DNA of 64,000 bases from an uncultured bacterium (GTDB lineage: Bacteria > Patescibacteriota > Minisyncoccia > Phycocordibacterales > GWA1-40-21). Below, piece after piece: positions 1-64,000 of the stretch. The stretch lies in assembly GCA_963798465.1 (NCBI GenBank), contig CAWCTC010000001.1:592465-656464 (forward strand), given 5' to 3'. The position numbers were made by a program, and so were the translations under genes. Position 1 is the stretch's first letter. The number at the start of each line of letters is the position of its first letter. The notes under the pieces were generated by a model, which searched no databases, was not told the DNA's origin, and saw only the letters and a list, made by a program, of their open reading frames with translations.

Positions 1-192
1 ATCAAAAGCAAAAGACGACTTTCCGGATCCGGAAATTCCCGTGATGGCAATCATTTTATTTCTGGGCATCTCAACATTTATATTTTTCAAGTTGTGAGTT
101 CTAGCTCCTTTTACTATGATTTTGCCGGCTTTTTCGTCAAAAATTGTTTTGCCTGCCCCGTGTGAATTTTCACTTTGTTTTGATTTATTCAT
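1..192 (-). CDS. uvrA: Excinuclease ABC subunit A, N-terminal fragment (continues beyond window start)
   Basis: Minus-strand ATG at 192..190. Translation is [64 protein letters not shown], which has the UvrA N-terminal signature VKGARxHNLKNI and Walker A GxSGSGKS. The first ~19 aa are an extension encoded by the H2 element. Confidence 0.85.
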
Positions 193-258
193 GATATTGA
201 TTTTTATTATTTATATAAGGCTAAAAATAAGGTTATTCTTTAAAAATTCTTTACGGGG
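156..258 (-). promoter_or_regulatory. H2 element copy A: inverted arms bracketing an AT-rich loop that holds the uvrA start codon
   Basis: Sense arms are CCCCGTAAAGAATTTTT (258->242) and GAAAATTCACACGGGG (171->156). They form 6 bp + internal loop + 6 bp. The loop contains TATA-rich hexamers and the ATG. Confidence 0.55.
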
Positions 259-1541: not shown

Positions 1542-2282
1542 TTAGTCCACAGGCAATTTCACCTCCACCATAGTTCCTTTATTCAATTCAGATTCTATTT
1601 TTATGCTTCCCTTGTGCATTTCAATGATTTTTCTTGTAGCAAATAAGCCAAGTCCGTTTTGTGTCTGGTCTAGCTCCTTTGCATTTTTGCCTCTATAAAA
1701 TTGCTCAAACATATGTTTCAAGTCGTCTCTTTCTATTCCGATACCATTGTCCTGCAAAACCAGCTTAGCCATATTTCCTTCTTCAGACAGAGTGACAGTC
1801 ACTGTGCCGTTTGGAGAATATCTGAAAGCATTATCAAAAATGTTTGTAAGCGCCAAATCTAAAAGTTTTTTATCTCCAAAAATAGTAACTGGGTCGCATT
1901 CTCTATCATATTGAAGATTTATATTTTTCTCTTTTATCAAATAGTCCAAATCTTTCAAGATTCCCTCTATAATGACGCAAACATTTATTTTTTCTTTTCT
2001 TAAATTAGCAAAACGCTCATTGGAATCCATTTCAGCGGCTTTCAATATTTCACCAATAGTATTTAGTGCTTCAATTATTTTATTATAGCTTTCATTCAAA
2101 ACATCTCTATCTTTGCATTCCTTATTTTTCAAAGCCATGTCCAAACCCCATCTTGCCCCGCTAAGCGGTGTGCGAAGTTTATGAACAAGAGCCAAAATAT
2201 AAGTCTCTTTAAATGGACTTGAGTCTGTTTTCCTTGCCCGGCTTGAATTTCCATTCTGTCCAAATATTGAAAAAAAGTTCAT
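1542..2282 (-). CDS. Cytoplasmic sensor histidine kinase (HisKA + HATPase_c, no TM segment)
   Basis: H-box LVHKLRTPLSG, N-box DNAFRYSP, G1 DNGIGI, G2 GLGLFATRKIIEMHKG. The N-terminus overlaps the H2 3' arm. Confidence 0.85.
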   Translation of the reverse strand: MNFFSIFGQNGNSSRARKTDSSPFKETYILALVHKLRTPLSGARWGLDMALKNKECKDRDVLNESYNKIIEALNTIGEILKAAEMDSNERFANLRKEKINVCVIIEGILKDLDYLIKEKNINLQYDRECDPVTIFGDKKLLDLALTNIFDNAFRYSPNGTVTVTLSEEGNMAKLVLQDNGIGIERDDLKHMFEQFYRGKNAKELDQTQNGLGLFATRKIIEMHKGSIKIESELNKGTMVEVKLPVD

Positions 2283-2340
2283 AGATAAATTATATATAAG
2301 TTTTAAAATGATAGCTACTCTTGGAAATTCTTTGCGGGGT
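2237..2340 (-). promoter_or_regulatory. H2 element copy B, around the histidine-kinase start
   Basis: Arms CCCCGCAAAGAATTTCC (2340->2324) and GGAAATTCAAGCCGGG (2252->2237). The loop contains TATATAAT and the ATG at 2282. Confidence 0.5.
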
Positions 2341-13547: not shown

Positions 13548-14653
13548 TGCGTTTGTATGCAAGAATTAAAAGCTGTGACTTCTGCATTATATTGCGCAAC
13601 TAATATTTTTATTTCAGTGGCCAGATTATTATAAAGTGTCGCAGTAGCATTTTTTTCTGCAACATCGGCATTGTAATCCTGAGTGTCTGTTGAAGGAAGT
13701 GCTGAAATTTTTGCATCCAAATTATTTATCGTCGTCATAAGGCTGTTTGCGGAAATTTTATATTGGCTAACTTTTGCCGCTATCGTAGCGTCGGGCTCCG
13801 TGCAATCAGACAACGGCTTTCCAAAAATTTGCGCCGCTATCCAAACACTTTGGCCTTGATAAGTTCCCTGTTCCGCATCGACTCCGATTTCCGTATAATT
13901 CTTGTCGAGAATATTCGCTCTGTGTCCCGGACTGTTCATCCATGCAGTCAGAAGTCCCTGCGAGCTTCCAAAATTTCCAAGAGCAATATTTTCTCCGATG
14001 GTTATATAACCGTAGCCATTTGTCGCAGCTTCTTTTGAAACATCGTCTCCTGTAGGAGAAATGTGCGCAAAATATTGTTTTGAAAACATATCTTTAACTC
14101 TTATGACAGCAATATTGCTTAAAGTATTATTTTTTTGAAGATTAACAAGCGTCGAATCATTTTCTTCTCTTTCCTGATTCGTCAGATAAATTATTTCATC
14201 GCTATTCAAATCAGTTCCGGTAATATTCGGGTTCGGAACATTAGTATTTGATGGAGAAGTATTTACGGAAGAAGTCGTACTTGGCGTTTCAACATTAGAT
14301 ACAACGGAATTGCTATTCAAAGTCTGAACTGGCTCTTGAACTATTTTTACTGTTGATGAAGCGCTTGGAATCGTATAAGAGGTACAAACTTGCTTTCCCA
14401 AATTTGTTCTGAATTCTCCAGCTTTCCATTCACCGGTGGAAATTGACAAAATATACTGTTTGCAGAAATCGCTTTTTACTTGAGCAATTATATTGTTATT
14501 TATGAAATTGAAAATGTTCGAAATACTGTCGGTCAAAGTCTGAGCTTTTGCTACATTGCAAAATAAGGTCGCTGACAGAAAAACAAGCGATGCTATCAAT
14601 AGTTTTCTGGTGCTTGCCCTGTGCGAATTTTTACATTGTTTTAAATTTAACAT
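13544..14653 (-). CDS. Secreted CAP/SCP/PR-1 (YkwD-like) domain protein
   Basis: Signal-like N-terminus. C-terminal GENIALG...LLTAWMNSPGHRANILDKNYTEIGV. The N-terminus MLNLKQCKNSHRA is encoded by the H2 3' arm. Confidence 0.75.
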   Translation of the reverse strand: MLNLKQCKNSHRASTRKLLIASLVFLSATLFCNVAKAQTLTDSISNIFNFINNNIIAQVKSDFCKQYILSISTGEWKAGEFRTNLGKQVCTSYTIPSASSTVKIVQEPVQTLNSNSVVSNVETPSTTSSVNTSPSNTNVPNPNITGTDLNSDEIIYLTNQEREENDSTLVNLQKNNTLSNIAVIRVKDMFSKQYFAHISPTGDDVSKEAATNGYGYITIGENIALGNFGSSQGLLTAWMNSPGHRANILDKNYTEIGVDAEQGTYQGQSVWIAAQIFGKPLSDCTEPDATIAAKVSQYKISANSLMTTINNLDAKISALPSTDTQDYNADVAEKNATATLYNNLATEIKILVAQYNAEVTAFNSCIQTQ

Positions 14654-14719
14654 GATATTTATTCATTAAATACATGACAAACCTATTTTACATCATTTTT
14701 TAACAAATTCATTACGGGG
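14617..14719 (-). promoter_or_regulatory. H2 element copy C, around the SCP-protein start
   Basis: Arms CCCCGTAATGAATTTGT (14719->14703) and AAAAATTCGCACAGGG (14632->14617). The ATG at 14653 is inside the loop. Confidence 0.5.
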
Positions 14720-14829
14720 TTTTTATTCAAAAACATCATAATGCATATTATACAACATAAACGAAAAACGCACTACAGAAACGCATTTTTGCTCACATTT
14801 TTTTTATTTCCAAAAATATGCACAGATTT

Positions 14830-14921
14830 ACCCGAGAAAATTTTTGTTGATGAAAAAATTATGTATAATTTTTCAGCATTATACTAAGATATATACTGCG
14901 TTAACAAAAACTTTAACGGGT
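14830..14921 (-). repeat. H1 element copy C
   Basis: Arms ACCCGTTAAAGTTTTTGTTAA ... TCAACAAAAATTTTCTCGGGT. Two inner hairpins. The interior carries TAGTATAAT. Confidence 0.6.
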
Positions 14922-23064: not shown

Positions 23065-23097
23065 ATTATTAATTTACTTTTAGCCAAAACTCTCTTT

Positions 23098-23170
23098 TGT
23101 CATTCCCGCGCAGGCGGGAATCCAGGTTTAATTAAATTGATTCTGGATTCCCGTTTTCACGGGAATGACA
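23098..23170. mobile_element. MITE-like palindromic element (GTCATTCCCGCG.AGGCGGGAATCCAG family)
   Basis: TGTCATTCCCGCGCAGGCGGGAATCCAGG ... CTGGATTCCCGTTTTCACGGGAATGACA, 73 bp, within the helicase 5' leader. Confidence 0.75.
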
Positions 23171-23233
23171 ATCCAAAAAAGTTTTGTAACTAATAGATTG
23201 TTTTATCCTATTTCTATATAGGTTATTAAATGT

Positions 23234-24804: not shown

Positions 24805-24854
24805 AGATTATTCAGATTACATTATTTTTTGATAAAATGAAAGAAAATAAACTA

Positions 24855-24875
24855 CTACCGGCTAAAAGCCGGTAG
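24855..24875 (-). promoter_or_regulatory. Terminator/attenuator-like hairpin in the ABC-F 5' leader
   Basis: CTACCGGC-TTTTA-GCCGGTAG followed by a U-rich tract, about 50 nt upstream of ATG 24804. Confidence 0.35.
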
Positions 24876-24929
24876 TTTTGGATAAGACTAAAGTCCGATA
24901 TTAAATACAAATGCAGACCCATACTCGTG

Positions 24930-25043
24930 TGTCATTCCCGCGAAGGCGGGAATCCAGAATTAATAGTGTCGCACTTATATAGGACGATTGTGCGAGTGAC
25001 TTCGCTAAGTCAAACCTAGATTCCCGTATTCACGGGAATGACA
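24930..25043. mobile_element. Composite MITE (GTCATTCCCGCGAAGGCGGGAATCCAG arms with an inserted GTCGCAC...GTGCGAG module)
   Basis: Arms as in 23098..23170 and 62055..62127. The extra internal unit is also found at 35889..35933, 52566..52599 and inside 61427..61523. Confidence 0.7.
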
Positions 25044-25112
25044 AATGTCATCCAAAACTAATCTTAAAAGGACTGCCTGAAGGCGGGAGTTTTGCTCCCA
25101 AAGGTGGATAAT

Positions 25113-25152
25113 AAAAAAACCCGGATTTTTGCTGGCCAGCAAAAATCTGGGT
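25113..25152 (-). terminator. Strong intrinsic terminator
   Basis: ACCCAGATTTTTGCTGG/CCAGCAAAAATCCGGGT 17-bp stem + T7 on the minus strand, right after the stop at 25153. Confidence 0.85.
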
Positions 25153-25314
25153 TCAATCTTTTTTCTTCATTTCTCTTACTTTAAGATTTTCCTCATATAT
25201 CTTTCTTTTTTCTTCGTCCAAGAAATGCGATATGATCGCGTATTTTCTTCTCGGACGAAAAAACCTTTCCATTGCGTGACAAAACCATTTCCAAAAAATC
25301 TTCAAAGTAGTCAT
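25153..25314 (-). CDS. Small protein, 53 aa
   Basis: AGGAGGAGG lies 5 nt upstream of ATG 25314. Sequence is MTTLKIFWKWFCHAMERFFRPRRKYAIISHFLDEEKRKIYEENLKVREMKKKD. The track start at 25350 is upstream of the SD. Confidence 0.55.
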   Translation of the reverse strand: MTTLKIFWKWFCHAMERFFRPRRKYAIISHFLDEEKRKIYEENLKVREMKKKD

Positions 25315-25377
25315 TTTTCCTCCTCCTATTTTTTTATTTGCATCCGGCAATAGACTAGCACAAAACTATTTTTCTTG

Positions 25378-25482
25378 CCCAGTGTGAATTTTCATCTAAT
25401 TTAAAATTAATATAGAATTATTTTTTATTAGATATATCAATATTAAACAAAAAGAATAATTCTTGTAAAATTCTTTACTGGG
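25378..25482 (-). promoter_or_regulatory. H2 element copy (stand-alone; contains a 9-aa mini-ORF)
   Basis: Arms CCCAGTAAAGAATTTT (25482->25467) and GAAAATTCACACTGGG (25393->25378), a compensated CCCCG/CGGGG to CCCAG/CTGGG change. The ATG at 25395 gives MKIHTGQEK in a different frame from the other copies. Confidence 0.55.
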
Positions 25483-25489
25483 TGTCAAA

Positions 25490-25522
25490 TAAAAAGAGCT
25501 GGGAAAAATTTCTCCCAGCTCT
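25490..25522 (-). terminator. Intrinsic terminator
   Basis: AGAGCTGGGAGAAATTTTTCCCAGCTCT + T5 on the minus strand, after the stop at 25528. Confidence 0.75.
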
Positions 25523-25527
25523 AATCA

Positions 25528-26010
25528 TCAATTCCAGTTTGGATTTACCCCTTTGTTAAAAGATTGTGCAAAAATTTTATCAAGCCATTCCATAGAACTT
25601 GATACTTCGCAGTTAATGCTTTTGACCTTAACTACTTCCCAGTCTTTTGCCACCCTTATGATGAAAATTGAGTCCTGCGGACCAATTTCTTGCTCTAATG
25701 CATTTTTGAATAGTATGTGAGCAAGAATTTGCTTGTCTATCATTATGTCAATTTCTTTTGCCAACTTCTCGACCTTGTCTATTCTGATCATTTGATCATC
25801 AGAATTTATCAGATCAAAAAGCTTTTCATTCATAAGGTTTATTTTCTTTTCGAGAACCGAACTGTAATACACAAAAAGTTTCTTCGTCTCCTCTTTTTGT
25901 ATCACGCCGATCTTTTCTTCAAAGTCTTGCCGCGCCTTTACTGCCGGTTCTCTCACAATATCAAGAGATCTAACTGTTTTAAGCAGATCCTCAATAAATT
26001 TTAGATCCAT
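25528..26010 (-). CDS. Hypothetical protein, 160 aa
   Basis: AAGGTGGTGA SD upstream of ATG 26010. No recognisable motif. Confidence 0.55.
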   Translation of the reverse strand: MDLKFIEDLLKTVRSLDIVREPAVKARQDFEEKIGVIQKEETKKLFVYYSSVLEKKINLMNEKLFDLINSDDQMIRIDKVEKLAKEIDIMIDKQILAHILFKNALEQEIGPQDSIFIIRVAKDWEVVKVKSINCEVSSSMEWLDKIFAQSFNKGVNPNWN

Positions 26011-26084
26011 GGCAAATCACCACCTTTTTTTTATTTAAACAACTTACCGATATATAAATACCACAAAATTACTATCTAGTCAAA

Positions 26085-26837
26085 TTAAAAAAGTTTTCCG
26101 AGATAATGCTTCAAAGTATAAATCCAGTCTTCATCACCAGCTTCATTTTTCAGCTTTTCAGAAAGAAGCCATTCGAGATATCTTTTATCAGTCTTTGCAA
26201 CTTCCTCTAAAGTTTTATCTTTATATTTTCCAAAATTAAATTTACCGAACAAGCTCGGAGTCGAGGAAATTTCCACCATTTTTTCAATCGCTTTTTCATC
26301 ACTTCCCTCTTCAGCTTTTACTTTTTCAAAAAGTCGCATAAAAAGCGCATAAAGAACTTTCACATCATCTTCGGCTTCGTGTGCGTGAGCATCGACATCA
26401 AGATCCAAATAATATCTCAGATATTGCAGATTGTATTCTGGAATTTTATTTTCTTTGTCCAAAAATCTTGCCACGCGCAAAGTGTCGATATATTTCGGTG
26501 TTTTTATTCCCTCGGCTTCAAGCATTGCGATATCAAACTTCGCATTGTGAGCTACGAGAATTCCATCTTTCAAAATTTTCTTCAATTCTTTCTGCATCTC
26601 ACTTCCCTCAAAACATCCTTTATCAGCGAGCATTTTGTTTGTAATATGGGTAATACTCATAGACTTCACAGACATTGGTAATGGCGGTTTGAAATAACAA
26701 GTTTTGATTTCTTTTGATGTTTTATAGCAAACCTGGCAAAGTCTGTCTTTGCCAATTTCATTTCCAGTCGTTTCAGTATCCAAAAAAATTAATTTTCCTG
26801 TCCCGTGTGAATTTTCGCTTAGTTTTGAATTTATCAT
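26085..26837 (-). CDS. DEDD-type 3'-5' exonuclease (ExoX/DnaQ-like) with DUF3820-like C-terminal domain
   Basis: IFLDTETTG (Exo I), VAHNAKFDIAMLE (Exo II), HEAEDD (Exo III), C-terminal FGKYKDKTLEEVAKTDKRYLEWLL. The N-terminal MINSKLSENSHGTGK is encoded by H2. Confidence 0.75.
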   Translation of the reverse strand: MINSKLSENSHGTGKLIFLDTETTGNEIGKDRLCQVCYKTSKEIKTCYFKPPLPMSVKSMSITHITNKMLADKGCFEGSEMQKELKKILKDGILVAHNAKFDIAMLEAEGIKTPKYIDTLRVARFLDKENKIPEYNLQYLRYYLDLDVDAHAHEAEDDVKVLYALFMRLFEKVKAEEGSDEKAIEKMVEISSTPSLFGKFNFGKYKDKTLEEVAKTDKRYLEWLLSEKLKNEAGDEDWIYTLKHYLGKLF

Positions 26838-26905
26838 AAGATTATGTTTATTAAATATCTTTTATATTTACGATATAGATTATTCTTGTAAAATTCTTTA
26901 CGGGG
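26802..26905 (-). promoter_or_regulatory. H2 element copy, around the exonuclease start
   Basis: Arms CCCCGTAAAGAATTTT (26905->26890) and GAAAATTCACACGGG (26816->26802). TTTACA follows the 5' arm. The ATG at 26837 is in the loop. Confidence 0.55.
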
Positions 26906-43597: not shown

Positions 43598-43730
43598 ACC
43601 CGCTAAAGTTTTTGCTGACGTGTTGAAAATGAAAATTTATTAGATTTATCTTTAGTATAAGGTTGTCTATATAAAATAAACATATTCATATAATCTCAAC
43701 ACATTTTCATCAGCAAAAATTTTCTCGGGT
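43598..43730 (+). repeat. H1 element copy D, 10 nt upstream of the ppdK start
   Basis: Arms ACCCGCTAAAGTTTTTGCTGA ... TCAGCAAAAATTTTCTCGGGT. The interior contains TCATATAAT (43689..43694) and a bulged extension TGAAAATG/CATTTTCA. Confidence 0.6.
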
Positions 43731-43739
43731 AAAAAATCA

Positions 43740-56268: not shown

Positions 56269-56841
56269 TTATTTTATCAACTCCTCGACATTTCCCGAAA
56301 GGTCTGTGGTGTCTCCCTCGACCTTCGAAACATCTCCGTAAATATTGGTAACATCGCCTTTTATATTTGTCACATGGCCTTTTATATTGCTGACGTAACC
56401 TTTAATGTTTGTGACATTGCCGGTTATATTTGTCACATCTCCTTGCAGATCGGAAACATCGCCAATTATTTTCGTCGTATCGCCTTCAATATGGCTTACA
56501 TCGCCGTGAATATTTGTAACATCACCGCTGATATTGGAAACATCGCCGACAATTCCGCTCAAGTCTCCGCGGATTTTTGAAACATTTCCGCGAATTTTTG
56601 ACACATCGCTTTTGATATTAGTCACATCGCCTTTTATGTTCGAAACATCGCCATGCAAGCCGGAAATATCTCCGCTGATGTTTGAAACGTCGCCGGAAAT
56701 TTTATGTATGCTCAAATCGCCGGATATTTTTGAAACATCGCCTTTTATGGATTTAAAATCGCCCATTATATTGTCATGCAAGCCTGTGACATTTTCCGTA
56801 TTCAGCTGTTTGAAAGCTATATTTATTTTTTTGAGTGTCAT
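56269..56841 (-). CDS. Heptad-repeat protein: about 22 tandem GDV(S/T)NIx units, no signal peptide
   Basis: GDVSNIS GDISGLH GDVSNIK GDVTNIK SDVSKIR GNVSKIR ... GDVTNIY GDVSKVE GDTTDLS. TGATATCAT lies 6 nt upstream of the ATG. The plus-strand ORFs 56263..56580 and 56534..56851 are shadows of the repeat. Confidence 0.7.
   Translation of the reverse strand: MTLKKINIAFKQLNTENVTGLHDNIMGDFKSIKGDVSKISGDLSIHKISGDVSNISGDISGLHGDVSNIKGDVTNIKSDVSKIRGNVSKIRGDLSGIVGDVSNISGDVTNIHGDVSHIEGDTTKIIGDVSDLQGDVTNITGNVTNIKGYVSNIKGHVTNIKGDVTNIYGDVSKVEGDTTDLSGNVEELIK
56290..56760 (-). repeat. 21-bp tandem coding repeat underlying the heptad protein
   Basis: Periodicity of GGNGAYGTNWCNAAYATHNNN read over about 470 bp. 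Confidence 0.75.
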
Positions 56842-59182: not shown

Positions 59183-59869
59183 TTATTTAATTCCCTTTCT
59201 CCACTCATCAATCAATTTATGATTTCCTGAAAGTAAAACTTTTGGAACCACATATTTCTTCTTTTTATATATCAAAACTTCCGGTCTTGTATAAACTTCA
59301 CTGCTTGAAATTCTTTCTTCTTCAAGAGAGGCTTTGTTTCCAAGAACACCATCTATTTGTCTTGAGACTGAATCCATAATGAGCATAGCTGGAAGTTCCC
59401 CACCGGTAAGCACAAATGGACCAACAGTAATTTTTTCTGTTTTGAATATTTTATTCACTCTTTCATCTATCCCTTCATATCTTCCAGAAATAAAAATAAT
59501 ATCTGTAAATTTTTTTGCAGTTTCTTTTGCATAAGCAGTATCAAATTGTTTTCCACCTGGACTTAAAAATATAATTTTTACTTTATGACTTTTGCCTTTT
59601 GACTTTTTACTTGCTGAAAGCGCTTTCTCAATTGCTTTTGCAACTGGCTCGGCTTGCATCACCATTCCTGGACCACCGCCATAAGGAATATCGTCAACTC
59701 TTTTATATGGCTTGTCTTTCTTTTTTTGCGAAGGTGAAACCTTCGCAAAATCGCGTGGATTATAAAAACTTACCTTCACCTTTTTCTCTCTGATTGCCCG
59801 TGCCAAAATCGACTCATTCAAATATGAGGTAAAGGATTCTGGAAATAATGTGATTATGTGAAAATTCAC
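59183..59869 (-). CDS. trmD: tRNA (guanine37-N1)-methyltransferase
   Basis: The GTG start at 59869 gives (M)NFHIITLFPESF, the canonical TrmD N-terminus. GGGPGMVM, SPGGK, GRYEGIDERV. The track TTG start at 59908 would add 13 aa encoded by the H2 arm. Confidence 0.9.
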   Translation of the reverse strand: MNFHIITLFPESFTSYLNESILARAIREKKVKVSFYNPRDFAKVSPSQKKKDKPYKRVDDIPYGGGPGMVMQAEPVAKAIEKALSASKKSKGKSHKVKIIFLSPGGKQFDTAYAKETAKKFTDIIFISGRYEGIDERVNKIFKTEKITVGPFVLTGGELPAMLIMDSVSRQIDGVLGNKASLEEERISSSEVYTRPEVLIYKKKKYVVPKVLLSGNHKLIDEWRKGIK

Positions 59870-60007
59870 AGGGTAGTGAAATTTCAAATTGTTTTTATTG
59901 CCAAACAACTTGAAATTTTAATTAATGTTTATTTGATAAATTATAAATCTATTGATATATATAACTTTTCTAAAAACAAGGCAATGATTTGAAATTCTAC
60001 TACCCTG
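59869..60007 (-). promoter_or_regulatory. H2 element copy E (21-nt arms) ending at the trmD GTG
   Basis: CAGGGTAGTAGAATTTCAAAT (60007->59987) pairs with ATTTGAAATTTCACTACCCTG (59889->59869): 19 Watson-Crick pairs, 1 GU, 1 mismatch. CCCCG/CGGGG is replaced by CAGGG/CCCTG. Confidence 0.6.
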
Positions 60008-60014
60008 TTCATTT

Positions 60015-60142
60015 ACCCGAGAAAATTTTTGCCAATAAAAATTGCGCGACTTTAAGGTTTAACTAGATAACATTTATAACTCTAACCCAATATCACAAAA
60101 ATCGCAATTTTTGCTAGCGCGTTGGCAAAAACTTTAACGGGT
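60015..60142 (-). repeat. H1 element copy E
   Basis: Arms ACCCGTTAAAGTTTTTGCCAA ... TTGGCAAAAATTTTCTCGGGT. Flanks extend the stem (AAAT/ATTT). Confidence 0.6.
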
Positions 60143-60203
60143 AAATCAAAATACAATAAAAAACGCCAAAATACAATGATTAAAATTCAGTCGATTCTTG
60201 ATA

Positions 60204-60267: not shown

Positions 60268-60519
60268 ATGGACAATCAGGAACTGGACCAGCTTGAAAAA
60301 CTCTTAGTAGAGGCGGGTATAGACACAGAGAAAGCTATGGATCTTGTTATAAAAGCCATGAAGATATCTTTAGACAAAGATATCTCGGTGATAAAAGCAC
60401 TTAGATCACTCGCTGACATAGGAGCGCCCTCGGACTCAATGAAATACCAGCTGGCCATAGCTCTACAAAATATTAACAATGTAGAGCTCGAGAGACTAAA
60501 ATCTCTCACCGCTGTCTGA
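60268..60519 (+). CDS. Small helical protein, 83 aa
   Basis: AAGGGGTGA SD-like site upstream of ATG 60268. Has its own promoter and terminator. Confidence 0.5.
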   Translation: MDNQELDQLEKLLVEAGIDTEKAMDLVIKAMKISLDKDISVIKALRSLADIGAPSDSMKYQLAIALQNINNVELERLKSLTAV

Positions 60520-60642: not shown

Positions 60643-60873
60643 ATGTATTTGAAGCAGGAGGAAGAATTGTGGGTAAGAAAAATCCTCGCTGATGCCAATT
60701 GCCCGGAACCAAAAATTGAGGATTATATAACGTTAATAAGAAAAATAATGGAAGAAGACAATCTTCCATTAAGCCGAGTTCTCCTCATGGTTTCGGGTGG
60801 AGATGAGGATTTCCGAAGCCTGTTGGAAAAAAATGGGCTGCTGAAAAAAATCACTCGTACGATCTTCAAATAA
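60643..60873 (+). CDS. Small protein, 76 aa
   Basis: GGGAGGTGA lies 5 nt upstream of ATG 60643. The track start at 60550 lies upstream of the promoter -10. Confidence 0.5.
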   Translation: MYLKQEEELWVRKILADANCPEPKIEDYITLIRKIMEEDNLPLSRVLLMVSGGDEDFRSLLEKNGLLKKITRTIFK

Positions 60874-60908: not shown

Positions 60909-60915
60909 AATTAAT

Positions 60916-60950
60916 TATAAAGGGCGGCACCTCCGGTGCCGCCCTTTATA
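60916..60950. terminator. GC-rich terminator (GGGCGGCACCTCCGGTGCCGCCC variant)
   Basis: Differs in the loop by one nucleotide from the 9647 and 26955 copies. Confidence 0.8.
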
Positions 60951-60970
60951 ATTAATTTTTTGAACTTTAA

Positions 60971-61294
60971 TTAGAGCTTCAAATCTGCCATCGCTTCATC
61001 AACCGTCTTTGTGACTGGTTCTTTTGAAACGGTTGCTCTTGGTTCTGCTCCTTCTGGTTCGTTGATCTTCAGGTTCACTCTTGAATTGTTTTTCATTCCG
61101 ACAACTCTCAAAAGTGTTCTTATTGCCTTTGCGGTATTGCCTGATCTTCCGATGACTTTGCCCATATCAGCATTGTCCACAACAAGAGTTAGTAATACGC
61201 CCATTTCATCGACTGTCCTGACAATTTTTACTTTATCTGGAGCGTCGACTAAAGCCTTAACAACGAAATCTAAAAATTTTGCATCTTGTTCCAT
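60971..61294 (-). CDS. KH-domain RNA-binding protein (YlqC/UPF0109 family)
   Basis: DMGKVIGRSGNTAKAIRTLL, and the usual position after rpsP. Confidence 0.8.
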   Translation of the reverse strand: MEQDAKFLDFVVKALVDAPDKVKIVRTVDEMGVLLTLVVDNADMGKVIGRSGNTAKAIRTLLRVVGMKNNSRVNLKINEPEGAEPRATVSKEPVTKTVDEAMADLKL

Positions 61295-61426: not shown

Positions 61427-61523
61427 TGTCTTTGCGAGCATAGCGAAGTCACGTCGCATAACCGTCCTTATAATGTGGCGTTGTTAATTAATTCTGGATT
61501 GCTTCGCTATGCTCGCAAAGACA
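61427..61523. mobile_element. Composite MITE between rpsP and the KH gene
   Basis: TGTCTTTGCGAGCATAGCGAAG ... CTTCGCTATGCTCGCAAAGACA, with the GTCACGTCGCATAACC module inside. Confidence 0.7.
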
Positions 61524-61530
61524 CAATACA

Positions 61531-61560
61531 AAATGGCGACCACTTCGTGGTCGCCATTTT
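61531..61560. terminator. Hairpin after rpsP
   Basis: ATGGCGACCAC-TTCG-TGGTCGCCAT flanked by A and T runs. Confidence 0.7.
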
Positions 61561-61575
61561 TATTTTAGTTTTAAA

Positions 61576-61992
61576 TTATGCCTGAACTTGTGGAGCTTCT
61601 GCGGGTGCTGGTGTTTCTGCAACTGGTGTTGGTGCCGCTTCTGGAGCTGGCTTTGGCTCTTTAGCTTTTGCTTCCGCTTTCTCTGCTTCTTCCTTTGCTT
61701 TCTTTGCGTTTATAATTTTATTTTTTGGAAGCACATTTATTTTCTTTCCTGTGAGAATCTTTTGATCTACAAGAAAATTATGGACTGTATCTGAAACTTG
61801 AGCGCCTTTTGAAATCCAATATTTAACTTTCTCTCCATCAACATGATTTGTGCCCTTTCCTTTTCTTGCATCATAAGAACCCAATACTTCAACGGCTTTT
61901 CCGCTTTTTGGTCCAAATTTTGAATCTGTCAGCACGATGCGAAATGACGGTTCGTGCGTTCTTCCTACTCTTTGTAATCTAATTATTAACAT
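61576..61992 (-). CDS. rpsP: 30S ribosomal protein S16 with Ala/Pro/Glu/Lys-rich C-terminal tail
   Basis: MLIIRLQRVGRTHEPSFRIV from ATG 61992; the track start at 62019 is upstream. Confidence 0.9.
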   Translation of the reverse strand: MLIIRLQRVGRTHEPSFRIVLTDSKFGPKSGKAVEVLGSYDARKGKGTNHVDGEKVKYWISKGAQVSDTVHNFLVDQKILTGKKINVLPKNKIINAKKAKEEAEKAEAKAKEPKPAPEAAPTPVAETPAPAEAPQVQA

Positions 61993-62054
61993 AGACGATA
62001 TACTAACAAAATACGACATAAAGTCAACTGATTTTTAAAAGCAATTTATCTTTA

Positions 62055-62127
62055 TGTCATTCCCGCGAAGGCGGGAATCCAGGTTGAATTGAATTAATTC
62101 TGGATTCCCGCCTTCGCGGGAATGACA
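62055..62127. mobile_element. MITE-like palindromic element (GTCATTCCCGCGAAGGCGGGAATCCAG family)
   Basis: TGTCATTCCCGCGAAGGCGGGAATCCAGG ... CTGGATTCCCGCCTTCGCGGGAATGACA, 73 bp. Confidence 0.75.
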
Positions 62128-62174
62128 TACAAAAATATACAAATCAAGGTTTTTTTGCTATGCTTATTTCATAA

Positions 62175-64000
62175 ATGAAAAAAGATAAACAATTCTGGAG
62201 GAAGGACAGTAATGACAGCAGGAAAACTGAACATCAGGGAAAACTGAAGACTCTGACAGGAAAAATCAAAGCAATTCGCGGCCACACCGCCTATTTTATA
62301 GCCGACACAAACAATCTTGAAGTTGAAATCCCGACAAGACAGATAAACACTGCAATGTCCGGCGACAAGGTTGAAATAAAACTATTCAAGAAAAATAAAA
62401 CCGGAGTTCATGAAGGCGAAGTAATAAAAGTCATAAGTCGTGCAAAAAATTATTTTGTCGGCGTGATTGAAATTTCCGAAAAAGGAATTCTCGTCGTGCC
62501 CGATGATAGAAGAGTAAAAATTTCCGTAAAAATCGCAAAAGAAAAAGCCGGCACGCTGAAAAATGACGACAAAGTCAGAGTTAAAATTACAAAATGGGTT
62601 CAAACACCTGGTTTTTCTGAAGGAGAAATTGTAAATATTCTTGGAAAAAAAGGCGACAATTCTACAGAAATGAATTCCATCGCGGTAGATAAAGGTTTCG
62701 ACATGGATTTTTCGGAAAGAGTTTTAAATGAATCGCACAATATTTTCGAGCATAACAAAACAATTTCGCCCGAGGAAATTTCAAAAAGAAAAGATTTGAG
62801 AAATACTTTCACTTGCACGATTGATCCAAAAACCGCAAAAGATTTTGACGATGCCATTTCATTCAAGAAACTTCCAAATGGAAATCTTGAAATCGGTATT
62901 CATATCGCCGACGTTTCTTATTATGTCACTGAAAAAAGTGAGCTCGACAAAGAAGCTTACGAACGCGGTTGTTCGGTTTATTTGCCCGATAGAACGATTC
63001 CAATGCTTCCCTTTGAGCTTTCGGACAATCTTTGCTCTTTGAGTGAAGGCGACGAAAAACTTGCCTTTTCTGCAATTTTTGAAATCACCCCCCATGCAAA
63101 AGTCCATACAAGATGGTTTGGGAAATCCGTCATCAAATCCGCAAAAAGATTCACTTATGAAAGCGCGCAGGAAATATTAGATAGTGGCAACTCCTCTTTG
63201 TCATTGCAAGTGGAACGAAGTAATCCAGAAAAATTAGAAATAGATTCCCGTCTTCACGGGAATGACAACATGAAATATTTTGAAGCACTTGATACTTTGA
63301 ACAAGATTTCCAAAATATTCAGAAAGGAAAAAACGCAGAAAGGCGCGATAGATTTTGAATCAGGAAGAAATCGCTTTTGAGCTCGACACGGAAGGCAGAC
63401 CAATCAGGATTTACAAAAAACAAAGACTCGACACGCACAAGCTCGTCGAGGAATTCATGCTTCTCGCAAATAAAGAAGTCGCGGAGTTCGTTTATAAATA
63501 TGAAAAAAATTCCGGAAAACTTTTTCCTCTGCCATATCGTATTCACGATTTGCCAGACAAAGAAAGAATCGCTGAGCTTGCAGTTTTCGTAAAAGCTTTA
63601 GGCCATGAGCTTTTCATCGGACCAATCTGGAAATGTCACCGGCAAGGATATGCAGGCGCTTTTTGAGCAGATTGAAGGCAAGGCTGAGGAAGCACTGGTA
63701 AAAACCGCAGCGATCCGCTCGATGTCAAAAGCTATTTATTCAACAAAAAATATCGGTCACTTCGGACTTGGCTTTTGAATATTACGCGCACTTCACCTCG
63801 CCTATCCGAAGATATCCGGATCTTTTAGTCCACAGAATTTTAAATAAAATTTTAACAAAAGAGAGCATCGCCCACGAAAAGTCTGCTGACCTCGTGGCAA
63901 GAGAAAAAAATCTCGCATTTTATGAAAAAGCTTGTCTTCACTCGACCGACCAAGAAATAAAAGCTTCAGAAGCTGAGCGCGATGGCAGAAAATACAAACA
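62175..64000 (+). pseudogene. rnr: Ribonuclease R, at least 3 frameshifts and an in-frame MITE insertion; runs off the window end
   Basis: N-terminal OB/CSD region. RNB motifs CTIDPKTAKDFDDAIS, IGIHIADVSYYV and [23 protein letters not shown] occur in different frames. Breaks are near 63365, 63610 and 63775. Confidence 0.8.
63199..63267 (+). mobile_element. 69-bp MITE inserted in frame in the RNase R coding sequence
   Basis: TGTCATTGCAAGTGGAACGAAGTAATCCAG ... AGATTCCCGTCTTCACGGGAATGACA. 69 nt is 23 codons, read through as SLQVERSNPEKLEIDSRLHGNDN without a stop. Confidence 0.7.

Follow-up and report, generated by a model that had tools for sequence, protein, structure and literature searches.

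The start of trmD in the DNA analysed here, a 64,000-nucleotide stretch of a patescibacterial genome (contig CAWCTC010000001.1; hereafter the window), raises the question of why this gene should open with a GTG codon exactly at the base of a long hairpin. The gene encodes tRNA m1G37 methyltransferase, is located at 59183..59869 on the minus strand (228 amino acids from the GTG; Pfam PF01746, E = 7e-35), and is followed by a terminator. Two palindromic repeats lie upstream: a copy of a repeat designated H1 and, between it and the gene, a hairpin related to a second repeat, H2. The first-pass annotation of this locus viewed trmD as cut off from an rpsP-KH-trmD operon, with H1 and H2 supplying or organising its transcription and two mutually exclusive folds at the start codon. 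Comparison with related loci leads to a different answer, namely that the hairpin at trmD is very likely a recently inserted mobile element of 139 bp, of the miniature inverted-repeat transposable element (MITE) type, and that the start codon was rebuilt as a side effect.

An insertion at the trmD start

The hairpin adjoining trmD is a non-coding, H2-related palindrome (59869..60007, minus strand) positioned inside codon 2 of the gene. Read along the gene strand, the window shows CTCGGGTAA, ATGAA, the element from CAGGGTAGTAGAATTTCAAAT to ATTTGAAATTTCACTACCCTG, TGAA and TTTTCACATAATC, with junctions of the form ATGAA[CAGGG...CCCTG]TGAATTTTCAC. The 5' inverted repeat (60007-59987) and the 3' inverted repeat (59889-59869) are 21 nt each and pair through 19 Watson-Crick pairs, one G.U and one A.C, in agreement with the first-pass annotation. 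The 5' arm and the reverse-complemented 3' arm mismatch at 2 of 21 positions, and the computed chance expectation for such a pair of 21-mers is 0.00. Joint folding of H1 and the element gave z = -7.5 relative to shuffled sequences; the long-range arms amount to -25.1 kcal/mol and a local hairpin formed by GAAATTTCAC and GTGAATTTTC to -7.3 kcal/mol. The element is AT-rich, with neither a Pfam match nor an open reading frame (ORF) of its own, the ORFs being limited to those reading in and reading out. A search of the whole window against Rfam at the gathering threshold returned zero matches, and a tRNA scan of the window (G+C content 35%) found none.

Related loci are here given L numbers. The 80 closest trmD loci, with TrmD proteins 60-89% identical to that of the window, place its source in the Paceibacterota (Parcubacteria); the trmD start was read in 25 relatives and was the uninterrupted ATGAATT[TC]CA in all 25. 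Alignment with L001 and L002 showed a single clean gap of 143 columns, corresponding to the 139 bp of the element and one TGAA, with TGAA on both sides of the element in the window. A look-up with the KH-domain protein encoded upstream of trmD located the identical protein at seven places, representing 22 contigs from many samples. A cassette of two small genes (sm1 and sm2) lies between the KH gene and trmD at all seven, and trmD, where called, is 143 nt nearer to sm1 than in the window. Six of these seven loci were checked at the sequence level and each reads CTCGGGTAAATGAATTTTCAC with no element. BLAST segments between the window and L224-L229 and L001 overlap by exactly 4 nt, which are TGAA. 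Judged by the uninterrupted starts, the 143-column gap and the 4-nt overlap, the trmD hairpin is an insertion in codon 2 with a 4-bp target duplication, private to one lineage.

The two copies of the target can be assigned precisely. The left TGAA (60008..60011, minus strand) belongs to the original ATGAA, now stranded; relatives have ATGAATTTTCAC at the empty site. The right TGAA (59865..59868, minus strand) follows G59869 to give GTG AA., the rebuilt trmD start. The stranded original ATG (60012-60010) opens a 23-codon ORF (59941..60012, minus strand) that enters the element and ends at a TAA stop; it occupies the position of the trmD ATG in L001, L002, L011 and L053, directly 3' of CGGGTAA. 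On this alignment the GTG is a chimera of the element's last G and the duplicated TG, and the ancestral start is the ATG. The first-pass annotation correctly placed the end of the 3' arm at G59869, the first base of the GTG from which (M)NFHIITLFPE is read. When an insertion duplicates the TG of an ATG, any terminal base of the element other than C yields a start codon, and the exact match between arm and GTG is therefore a geometric by-product of the insertion and not designed. The local alternative hairpin over the GTG also exists as described, the repeat TTGAAATTTCAC resembling the target ATGAATTTTCAC, but it is weak compared with the long-range stem and is likewise a by-product of insertion geometry.

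In the preferred account, the element inserted in one lineage between nucleotides 5 and 6 of the trmD frame, duplicating TGAA and severing the original ATG, which directly follows the older H1, from the rest of trmD. Because the duplicated target supplies TG and the last base of the element is G, a GTG now occupies exactly the old start position, and the TrmD protein would therefore be unchanged. The long hairpin is the paired inverted repeats of the element, presumably mobilised in trans by a transposase. Translation of trmD would now start at GTG 59869 or at one of two in-frame TTG codons within the element (59908 and 59887); either re-initiation downstream of the 23-codon stranded ORF or a weak promoter directed outward might make this possible. 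A consensus scan of the element for promoters directed towards trmD returned 10 sites as against 8.9 expected in shuffles, none of them convincing.

The same alignment might be read in reverse, with the element ancestral at trmD and precisely deleted in all relatives, or with the insertion an artefact of assembly; we consider this very improbable. Palindromes are prone to deletion and may be misassembled. Identity to L224 and L001, the nearest relatives, also shifts abruptly at the junction, from 98.7% over the KH-sm2-sm1-H1 segment (61405-60008) to 87% over trmD (59868-59182); that the switch coincides exactly with the point of insertion suggests that a recombination breakpoint lies at or beside the element. 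Deletion would, however, require repeated perfect loss of the element together with one TGAA in more than 30 genomes with TrmD identities of 60-89%, and both versions are opposed by the duplicated target, by inverted repeats that are still intact and by an independent copy in another assembly, described below.

A second copy and the relation to H2

A sister copy of the trmD element was found in L022 (~2726-2860), a locus whose TrmD is 69% identical to that of the window, in the context GATGAAA[TCCCGTAGTAGAATTTCAAATCATTGC ... GCAATAAAAACAATTTGAAATTTCACTACGGGA]TGAAAGATTTT. It adjoins the N-terminus of an RNase III-like (rnc-like) protein, MKDFTKFEEIIG...LLKQAFTHRSY, and is flanked by TGAAA, with its terminal A rebuilding the ATG of the RNase III-like gene. 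The subterminal 23 and 29 nt are 100% identical to the window copy and the centre is diverged. The tips of the sister copy, TCCCG/CGGGA, are perfectly paired and intermediate between those of the trmD element (CAGGG/CCCTG) and those of canonical H2 (CCCCG/CGGGG), in which pairing is retained.

The ends of the trmD element are significantly similar to those of canonical H2, the fraction of shuffles that reach the observed similarity being at most 0.0006 for the 5' end and 0 of 5000 for the 3' end. Full-length alignment with canonical H2 in both orientations yielded AT-rich noise only, and an nhmmer profile of canonical H2 did not recover the trmD element. Since the interiors do not align and the profile misses the element, homology to H2 is confined to the ends, and the element is an H2 variant at the family level only. 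It follows that the tip exchange put forward earlier as compensation, in which both arms indeed differ with pairing kept, is a comparison between subfamilies and not between orthologous positions of one RNA. An exact-pattern search for more copies of the element's repeat found none in the window or the 80 trmD loci. A metagenome scan with CAGGGTAGTNNAATTTCA gave 120 single matches with no inverted partner, which were judged to be chance; in hindsight the conserved subterminal 23-mer was judged the better pattern. Scans of viral contigs with the element, the H1 arm and the H2 arm yielded GC-rich, unrelated or single matches and no nhmmer signal.

Canonical H2 copies as insertions

The window contains five canonical H2 copies, all on the minus strand, of which four interrupt genes. 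Copy A (152..258) lies 17 nt into uvrA, and excision restores the N-terminus; copy B (2233..2339) lies 26 nt into a histidine-kinase gene (Pfam HATPase_c), where excision restores MSFLDIFKKKTDSS; copy C (14613..14719) lies 20 nt into the gene for a CAP-domain protein, where excision restores MMFLNKNTRKLL; and copy E (26797..26905) lies 5 nt into an exonuclease gene and brings a new in-frame ATG. The CAP-domain protein of L216 has 361 amino acids as compared with 369 in the window. Excision of [CCCCG...GGGG+CARG] restores an open ORF from the stranded upstream ATG in 4/4 genic copies, one boundary fitting all four.

At the exonuclease site, the start reconstructed by excision, MEKLIFLDTETTG, is the real N-terminus of most relatives, and the exonucleases of a few bear an H2-derived extension, ...SENSHGA.K. 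L216 and L217, 83-96% identical to the window and syntenic over 20 kb, have the exact empty site ATGGA/AAAATTA. The site is filled in L223. L222 contains a decayed, domesticated copy: the old ATG has been lost there, and the start is the ATG of the element. By these empty sites, canonical H2 is insertional and its in-frame ATG replaces the host start. The syntenic 20 kb of L216-L221 contains neither H1 nor H2 where the window has four copies, which would place the expansion of these repeats recently, in the lineage of the window. Target duplications of CARG or CAAA were considered for H2 and rejected, the exact empty sites allowing at most 1 nt of ambiguity and only a boundary including CARG giving in-frame restoration.

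Copy D (25374..25482) is intergenic and directly 3' of a TTGACA box. It is part of ~960 nt (24851-26027) between the exonuclease and ABC-ATPase genes that are absent from L216 and L217; this segment also holds an ORF (25528-26010) and repeats of GGGAATGAC.

The six genic insertions of H2 and trmD type share one codon phase, falling after nucleotides 5, 5, 5, 17, 20 and 26 of the frame, and in each the exit frame is open. These two properties favour translation out of the element over its removal from RNA. The latter would make the element, like H2, a hairpin 'intron' lost at the RNA level, conceivably through double-strand-specific cleavage at the base of the stem and subsequent ligation; this would restore AUGAAUUUUCAC and render the DNA insertion phenotypically silent. 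Excision at the boundary does restore the ancestral frame at trmD as at the four H2 copies, none of the window copies has lost its stranded ancestral ATG, and the stems are long, near-perfect duplexes. If the elements were spliced out, however, neither the common phase nor an open frame with its own start would be needed, and in L222 it is the stranded ATG that has decayed and the element-derived N-terminus that remains. There is no Rfam intron match, and self-splicing introns are far longer than 139 nt. To our knowledge there is no bacterial precedent for such removal, and there is very little to commend this explanation over translation out of the element.

The H1 family

The H1 copy at trmD (60013..60142, minus strand) is an older palindromic insertion, flanked by the -10-like box of trmD on one side and by the original ATG on the other. 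The box, TG-TATTTT (TGTATTTT), is at 60148..60155 on the minus strand and is recognised by consensus resemblance only; in the relatives without H1 that were compared (L004, L010, L012, L021, L022) it lies 7-10 nt 5' of the ATG. H1 had been placed 7 nt upstream of the H2-type hairpin; it is indeed directly upstream, ending at 60013, with the 5 nt of ATGAA (60012-60008) as the spacer. It abuts the trmD ATG (CGGGTAA/ATG) in L001, L002, L011, L053 and L224-L229, as it originally did in the window, and is missing at trmD in L004, L007, L008, L010, L012 and others.

Thirteen H1 copies were identified across seven genomes, with the 3' end 0-13 nt 5' of an ATG in 11 of the 13 and a -10-like box adjoining the 5' end. 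The ATGs concerned are those of trmD, rnc, RNase R-like, ppdK-like, HAD-like and phosphoketolase-like genes and the stranded ATGs of uvrA and the kinase; the copy before the ppdK-like gene (43598..43732, plus strand) is 7-9 nt 5' of the ATG, the value varying with the placement of its end. H1 copy C (14828..14921, minus strand) has an exact empty site in L216, AATTATATC/ATCTGTGC. The basal stem has 19 pairs, is 99.6% paired, shows 6 pairs changed on both sides and includes an invariant G.U on the gene strand. The centres are subfamily-specific, and copies of the same genome resemble one another, as expected for a repeat family and not for an orthologous leader. The exact empty site, the variable presence at trmD and the resemblance within genomes together identify H1, on comparative grounds, as insertional. 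Target duplications of TA or TAA were rejected for H1, since its exact empty site leaves no more than 1 nt ambiguous.

A common pattern of insertion

The trmD element is one of a set of related palindromes in Paceibacterota, together with H1 and canonical H2, and sequence comparison shows all three types to be insertions. All 20 copies are co-oriented with the downstream gene and 17 of the 20 lie between the -10 box and codon 9. Such start-proximal clustering may reflect either targeting, for example to single-stranded promoter DNA, or survivorship. A more ambitious interpretation, which we hold only tentatively and think rather unlikely, is that the three types form one strand-oriented superfamily homing between the -10 box and approximately codon 9 of leaderless genes, integrating where promoter complexes in the open or initially transcribing state expose single-stranded DNA, mostly without duplication, and persisting as a 'portable start' because they bring or re-create a start codon.

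Several observations weigh against recent insertion of a MITE-type element as the account of the trmD hairpin. The trmD subtype is known from two copies only, that of trmD in the window and that of the rnc-like gene in L022, and these differ in five terminal base pairs on both arms, which is unusual for ends recognised by a transposase. No longer element or transposase with matching ends was found in the window and ~1.3 Mb of relatives' loci. The absence of duplication at H1 and H2 means that the mechanism may not be classical DDE cut-and-paste, and TGAA could be a shared recombination core in place of a duplication. The present-day expression of trmD at the split locus is, in addition, only inferred.

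Genomic context and the leader explanation

The distance from the KH gene to trmD in the window is 1101 nt, in accord with the ~1.1 kb noted earlier, and the gap has the content described in that annotation, with two plus-strand small ORFs bearing Shine-Dalgarno-like sites and terminator-like hairpins. The ORF nearer to trmD, sm1 (60268..60519, 83 amino acids), is identical in L001 and present in L224-L229; sm2 (60643..60873, 76 amino acids) has no family match. Pfam and NCBIfam searches of sm1, sm2 and the ORF downstream of trmD returned no family. The KH-domain protein gene (60971..61294, minus strand) is of the KhpA/B type (PF13083, E = 1e-18) and is followed by a bidirectional terminator-like hairpin at 60912-60954. 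Further upstream, rpsP (61576..61992, minus strand; MLIIRLQRVG..., with PF00886 matched by the L224 orthologue) encodes ribosomal protein S16 and is followed by a second terminator-like hairpin at 61530-61560, both hairpins being results of the terminator scan.

Of 60 relatives with both genes on the locus, 29 have a KH-trmD gap of at most 130 nt, 11 have one of 131-400 nt and the gap exceeds 400 nt in the other 20. The cargo of long gaps varies and includes sm1-like proteins (L001, L003, L006, L014), PaaX/Cas2-like proteins (L003, L006) and unrelated genes elsewhere. The sm1-type proteins, helical-looking, recur on the opposite strand in the gap of L003, L006 and L014, and in L003 and L006 they adjoin a 128-130-amino-acid PaaX_M/Cas2-like protein (PF20803, E = 2e-14). 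Adjacent KH-trmD pairs that were displayed have a GC-rich hairpin and T-run after the KH gene and a TGTATTTT- or TATAAT-type box 7-10 nt 5' of the trmD ATG. Since these signals are present even where trmD is beside the KH gene, trmD in this clade looks like its own, probably leaderless unit whatever the gap, and the concept of a single rpsP-KH-trmD operon broken in the window is not upheld.

These data also bear on the role assigned to the hairpins, in which H1 and H2 form a cis-regulatory leader for an operon-severed trmD, with two exclusive RNA folds gating the start codon. The appeal of this model is that both hairpins fold far better than shuffles, that the GTG is covered by the 3' arm and by the local hairpin, and that H1 lies between the -10-like box and the start of many genes with two-sided changes in its stem and an invariant G.U; a secondary effect of H1 or the element on expression may well exist. 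Against it, the H2-type element is missing in every relative inspected, the 25 whose start was read as well as the six checked loci with the same gap and small genes, so that the same interruption does occur in the absence of the H2-type element, with H1 retained in L224-L229. Nor is H1 tied to the gap: it is present at trmD without the sm1/sm2 cassette in L002, L011 and L053, and gaps with other cargo have neither H1 nor H2 before trmD in L003, L006, L009 and L014. In addition, where trmD adjoins the KH gene in relatives it is served by a separate terminator and promoter context, the centre of each element is unconserved and the local hairpin is weak. The proposal that the hairpins supply transcription to a gene cut off from its operon is therefore not sustained, and a regulatory leader is an improbable explanation of the locus. 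The insertion of a mobile element is preferred.

Further features of the window were noted in passing. Many genes have a -10 box 6-10 nt 5' of the ATG and no Shine-Dalgarno sequence, for example the exonuclease gene (26840-26860) and the trmD starts of relatives, which suggests that leaderless mRNAs may be widespread; the rpsP start (62027-61990) reads TTGACT-16-TAGTAT-7-ATG, and the two small gap ORFs have strong Shine-Dalgarno sites, GGGGTGA and GGGAGGTGA. Between rpsP and the KH gene is a palindrome (61427-61523) with perfect 22-nt arms, TGTCTTTGCGAGCATAGCGAAG and CTTCGCTATGCTCGCAAAGACA, and the spacer is 149 nt in the window versus 27 nt in the nearest relatives L224 and L001; this palindrome appears to be another private insertion. 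GC-rich hairpins, GTCATTCCCGCGAAGGCGGGAATCC, form a second repeat family, with members at 62044-62138, 23095-23178, 24924-25054 and 63232-63278, and the pair upstream of rpsP is missing at that site in L224. The hairpin at 63232-63278 is in frame within an RNase R-like gene in the window and in L224 (689 amino acids), and the gene of L229 lacks it (663 amino acids, 78 nt shorter); by this comparison it is an in-frame insertion resembling the Rickettsia palindromic elements (RPE) discussed below. The RNase R-like gene (62175-63666) appears split in the window into two overlapping ORFs, 62175-63380 and 63355-..., and is a single ORF of 663-689 amino acids in relatives; the split may be a frameshift or a sequencing error. 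Elsewhere, 21-nt tandem repeats (at least 14 units) occur within an ORF at 56311-56773, and at 47.5-50.9 kb three blocks ~993 nt apart lie inside two adjacent genes of ~630 amino acids.

Significance and comparison with known systems

For annotation, the results mean that the trmD start is a chimeric GTG and that the N-termini of the uvrA, exonuclease, histidine-kinase and CAP-domain products are element-derived; gene callers are prone to misplace or extend such starts. An essential tRNA-modification gene in a ~1-Mb genome of the candidate phyla radiation (CPR) tolerates a transposon in codon 2 because the geometry of insertion regenerates the start codon, which makes trmD a clear natural case of a reduced genome absorbing selfish DNA. 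The co-orientation and start-proximal clustering of the 20 copies offer a testable lead on target choice. Should the superfamily interpretation prove correct, these repeats would represent a class of mobile element that targets transcription state and not sequence, and ultra-small genomes would repeatedly gain new N-termini and 5' leaders from them. A literature search on MITEs, palindromic elements and leaderless translation in CPR/Patescibacteria returned nothing relevant, and small palindromic repeats in Patescibacteria do not seem to have been described before.

Single-strand transposons of the IS200/IS605 type and their REP/PATE derivatives have hairpin ends, no target duplication, strict strand orientation and a short specific target. 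H1 and H2 are similar in lacking a duplication and in strict orientation, and TGAA might by analogy be a target matching the trmD-type end. In IS200/IS605 elements, however, each end has a separate subterminal hairpin, as opposed to one end-to-end palindrome here; no TnpA or RAYT gene was seen here, and the left flanks of H1 and H2 have a weak consensus only. The resemblance of H1 and H2 to this type may serve as a mechanistic lead and does not amount to membership.

MITEs are defined as small A+T-rich elements (under ~200-300 bp) that encode no transposase, have terminal inverted repeats, duplicate their target and occur in multiple, polymorphic copies (PMC2229807, PMC10969869), and in operational terms the trmD element falls within this definition. 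It is 139 bp, A+T-rich and without transposase coding capacity; it has 21-nt terminal inverted repeats, and the tips of the L022 copy also pair perfectly. The trmD type has a duplicated target (TGAA, or TGAAA in L022) that is single in L001, L002 and L224-L229, and dispersed, polymorphic copies were found (2 of trmD type, 5 of canonical H2 in the window and 13 of H1). At most 1 nt is duplicated at H1 and canonical H2. With regard to a structured RNA leader, the trmD element has no orthologous conservation, conserved core or Rfam match, the inverted repeats alone being conserved.

The Correia/NEMIS elements of Neisseria, non-coding MITEs of ~100-155 bp with TA duplicated and at the termini (PMC2229807, PMC2649163), are like the trmD element in size, A+T-richness, long stem-loop transcripts, target duplication, strain polymorphism and location beside gene starts, where expression can be altered (PMC2229807, PMC2649163). 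Correia elements duplicate TA, as compared with TGAA(A) for the trmD type and no duplication for H1 and H2, and no IHF-site or promoter function is attributed to the trmD element. The copies studied here also differ from Correia elements in being all co-oriented with the downstream gene and clustered from the -10 box to codon 9.

The RPEs, 105-150 bp long, occur in a reduced genome in frame inside conserved protein genes, where they are tolerated through preservation of the reading frame, and become part of the protein (PMC2229807, PMC10969869). Their host phylum differs from Paceibacterota and there is no sequence similarity, but canonical H2 similarly contributes a protein N-terminus, and the GGGAATGAC hairpin repeat lies within the RNase R-like gene. 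At trmD the stranded frame stops in the element and the protein restarts at or near its 3' end. Thus, whereas RPEs are read through in frame, insertions of the H2 and trmD types disrupt the frame of the original start and provide or regenerate another.

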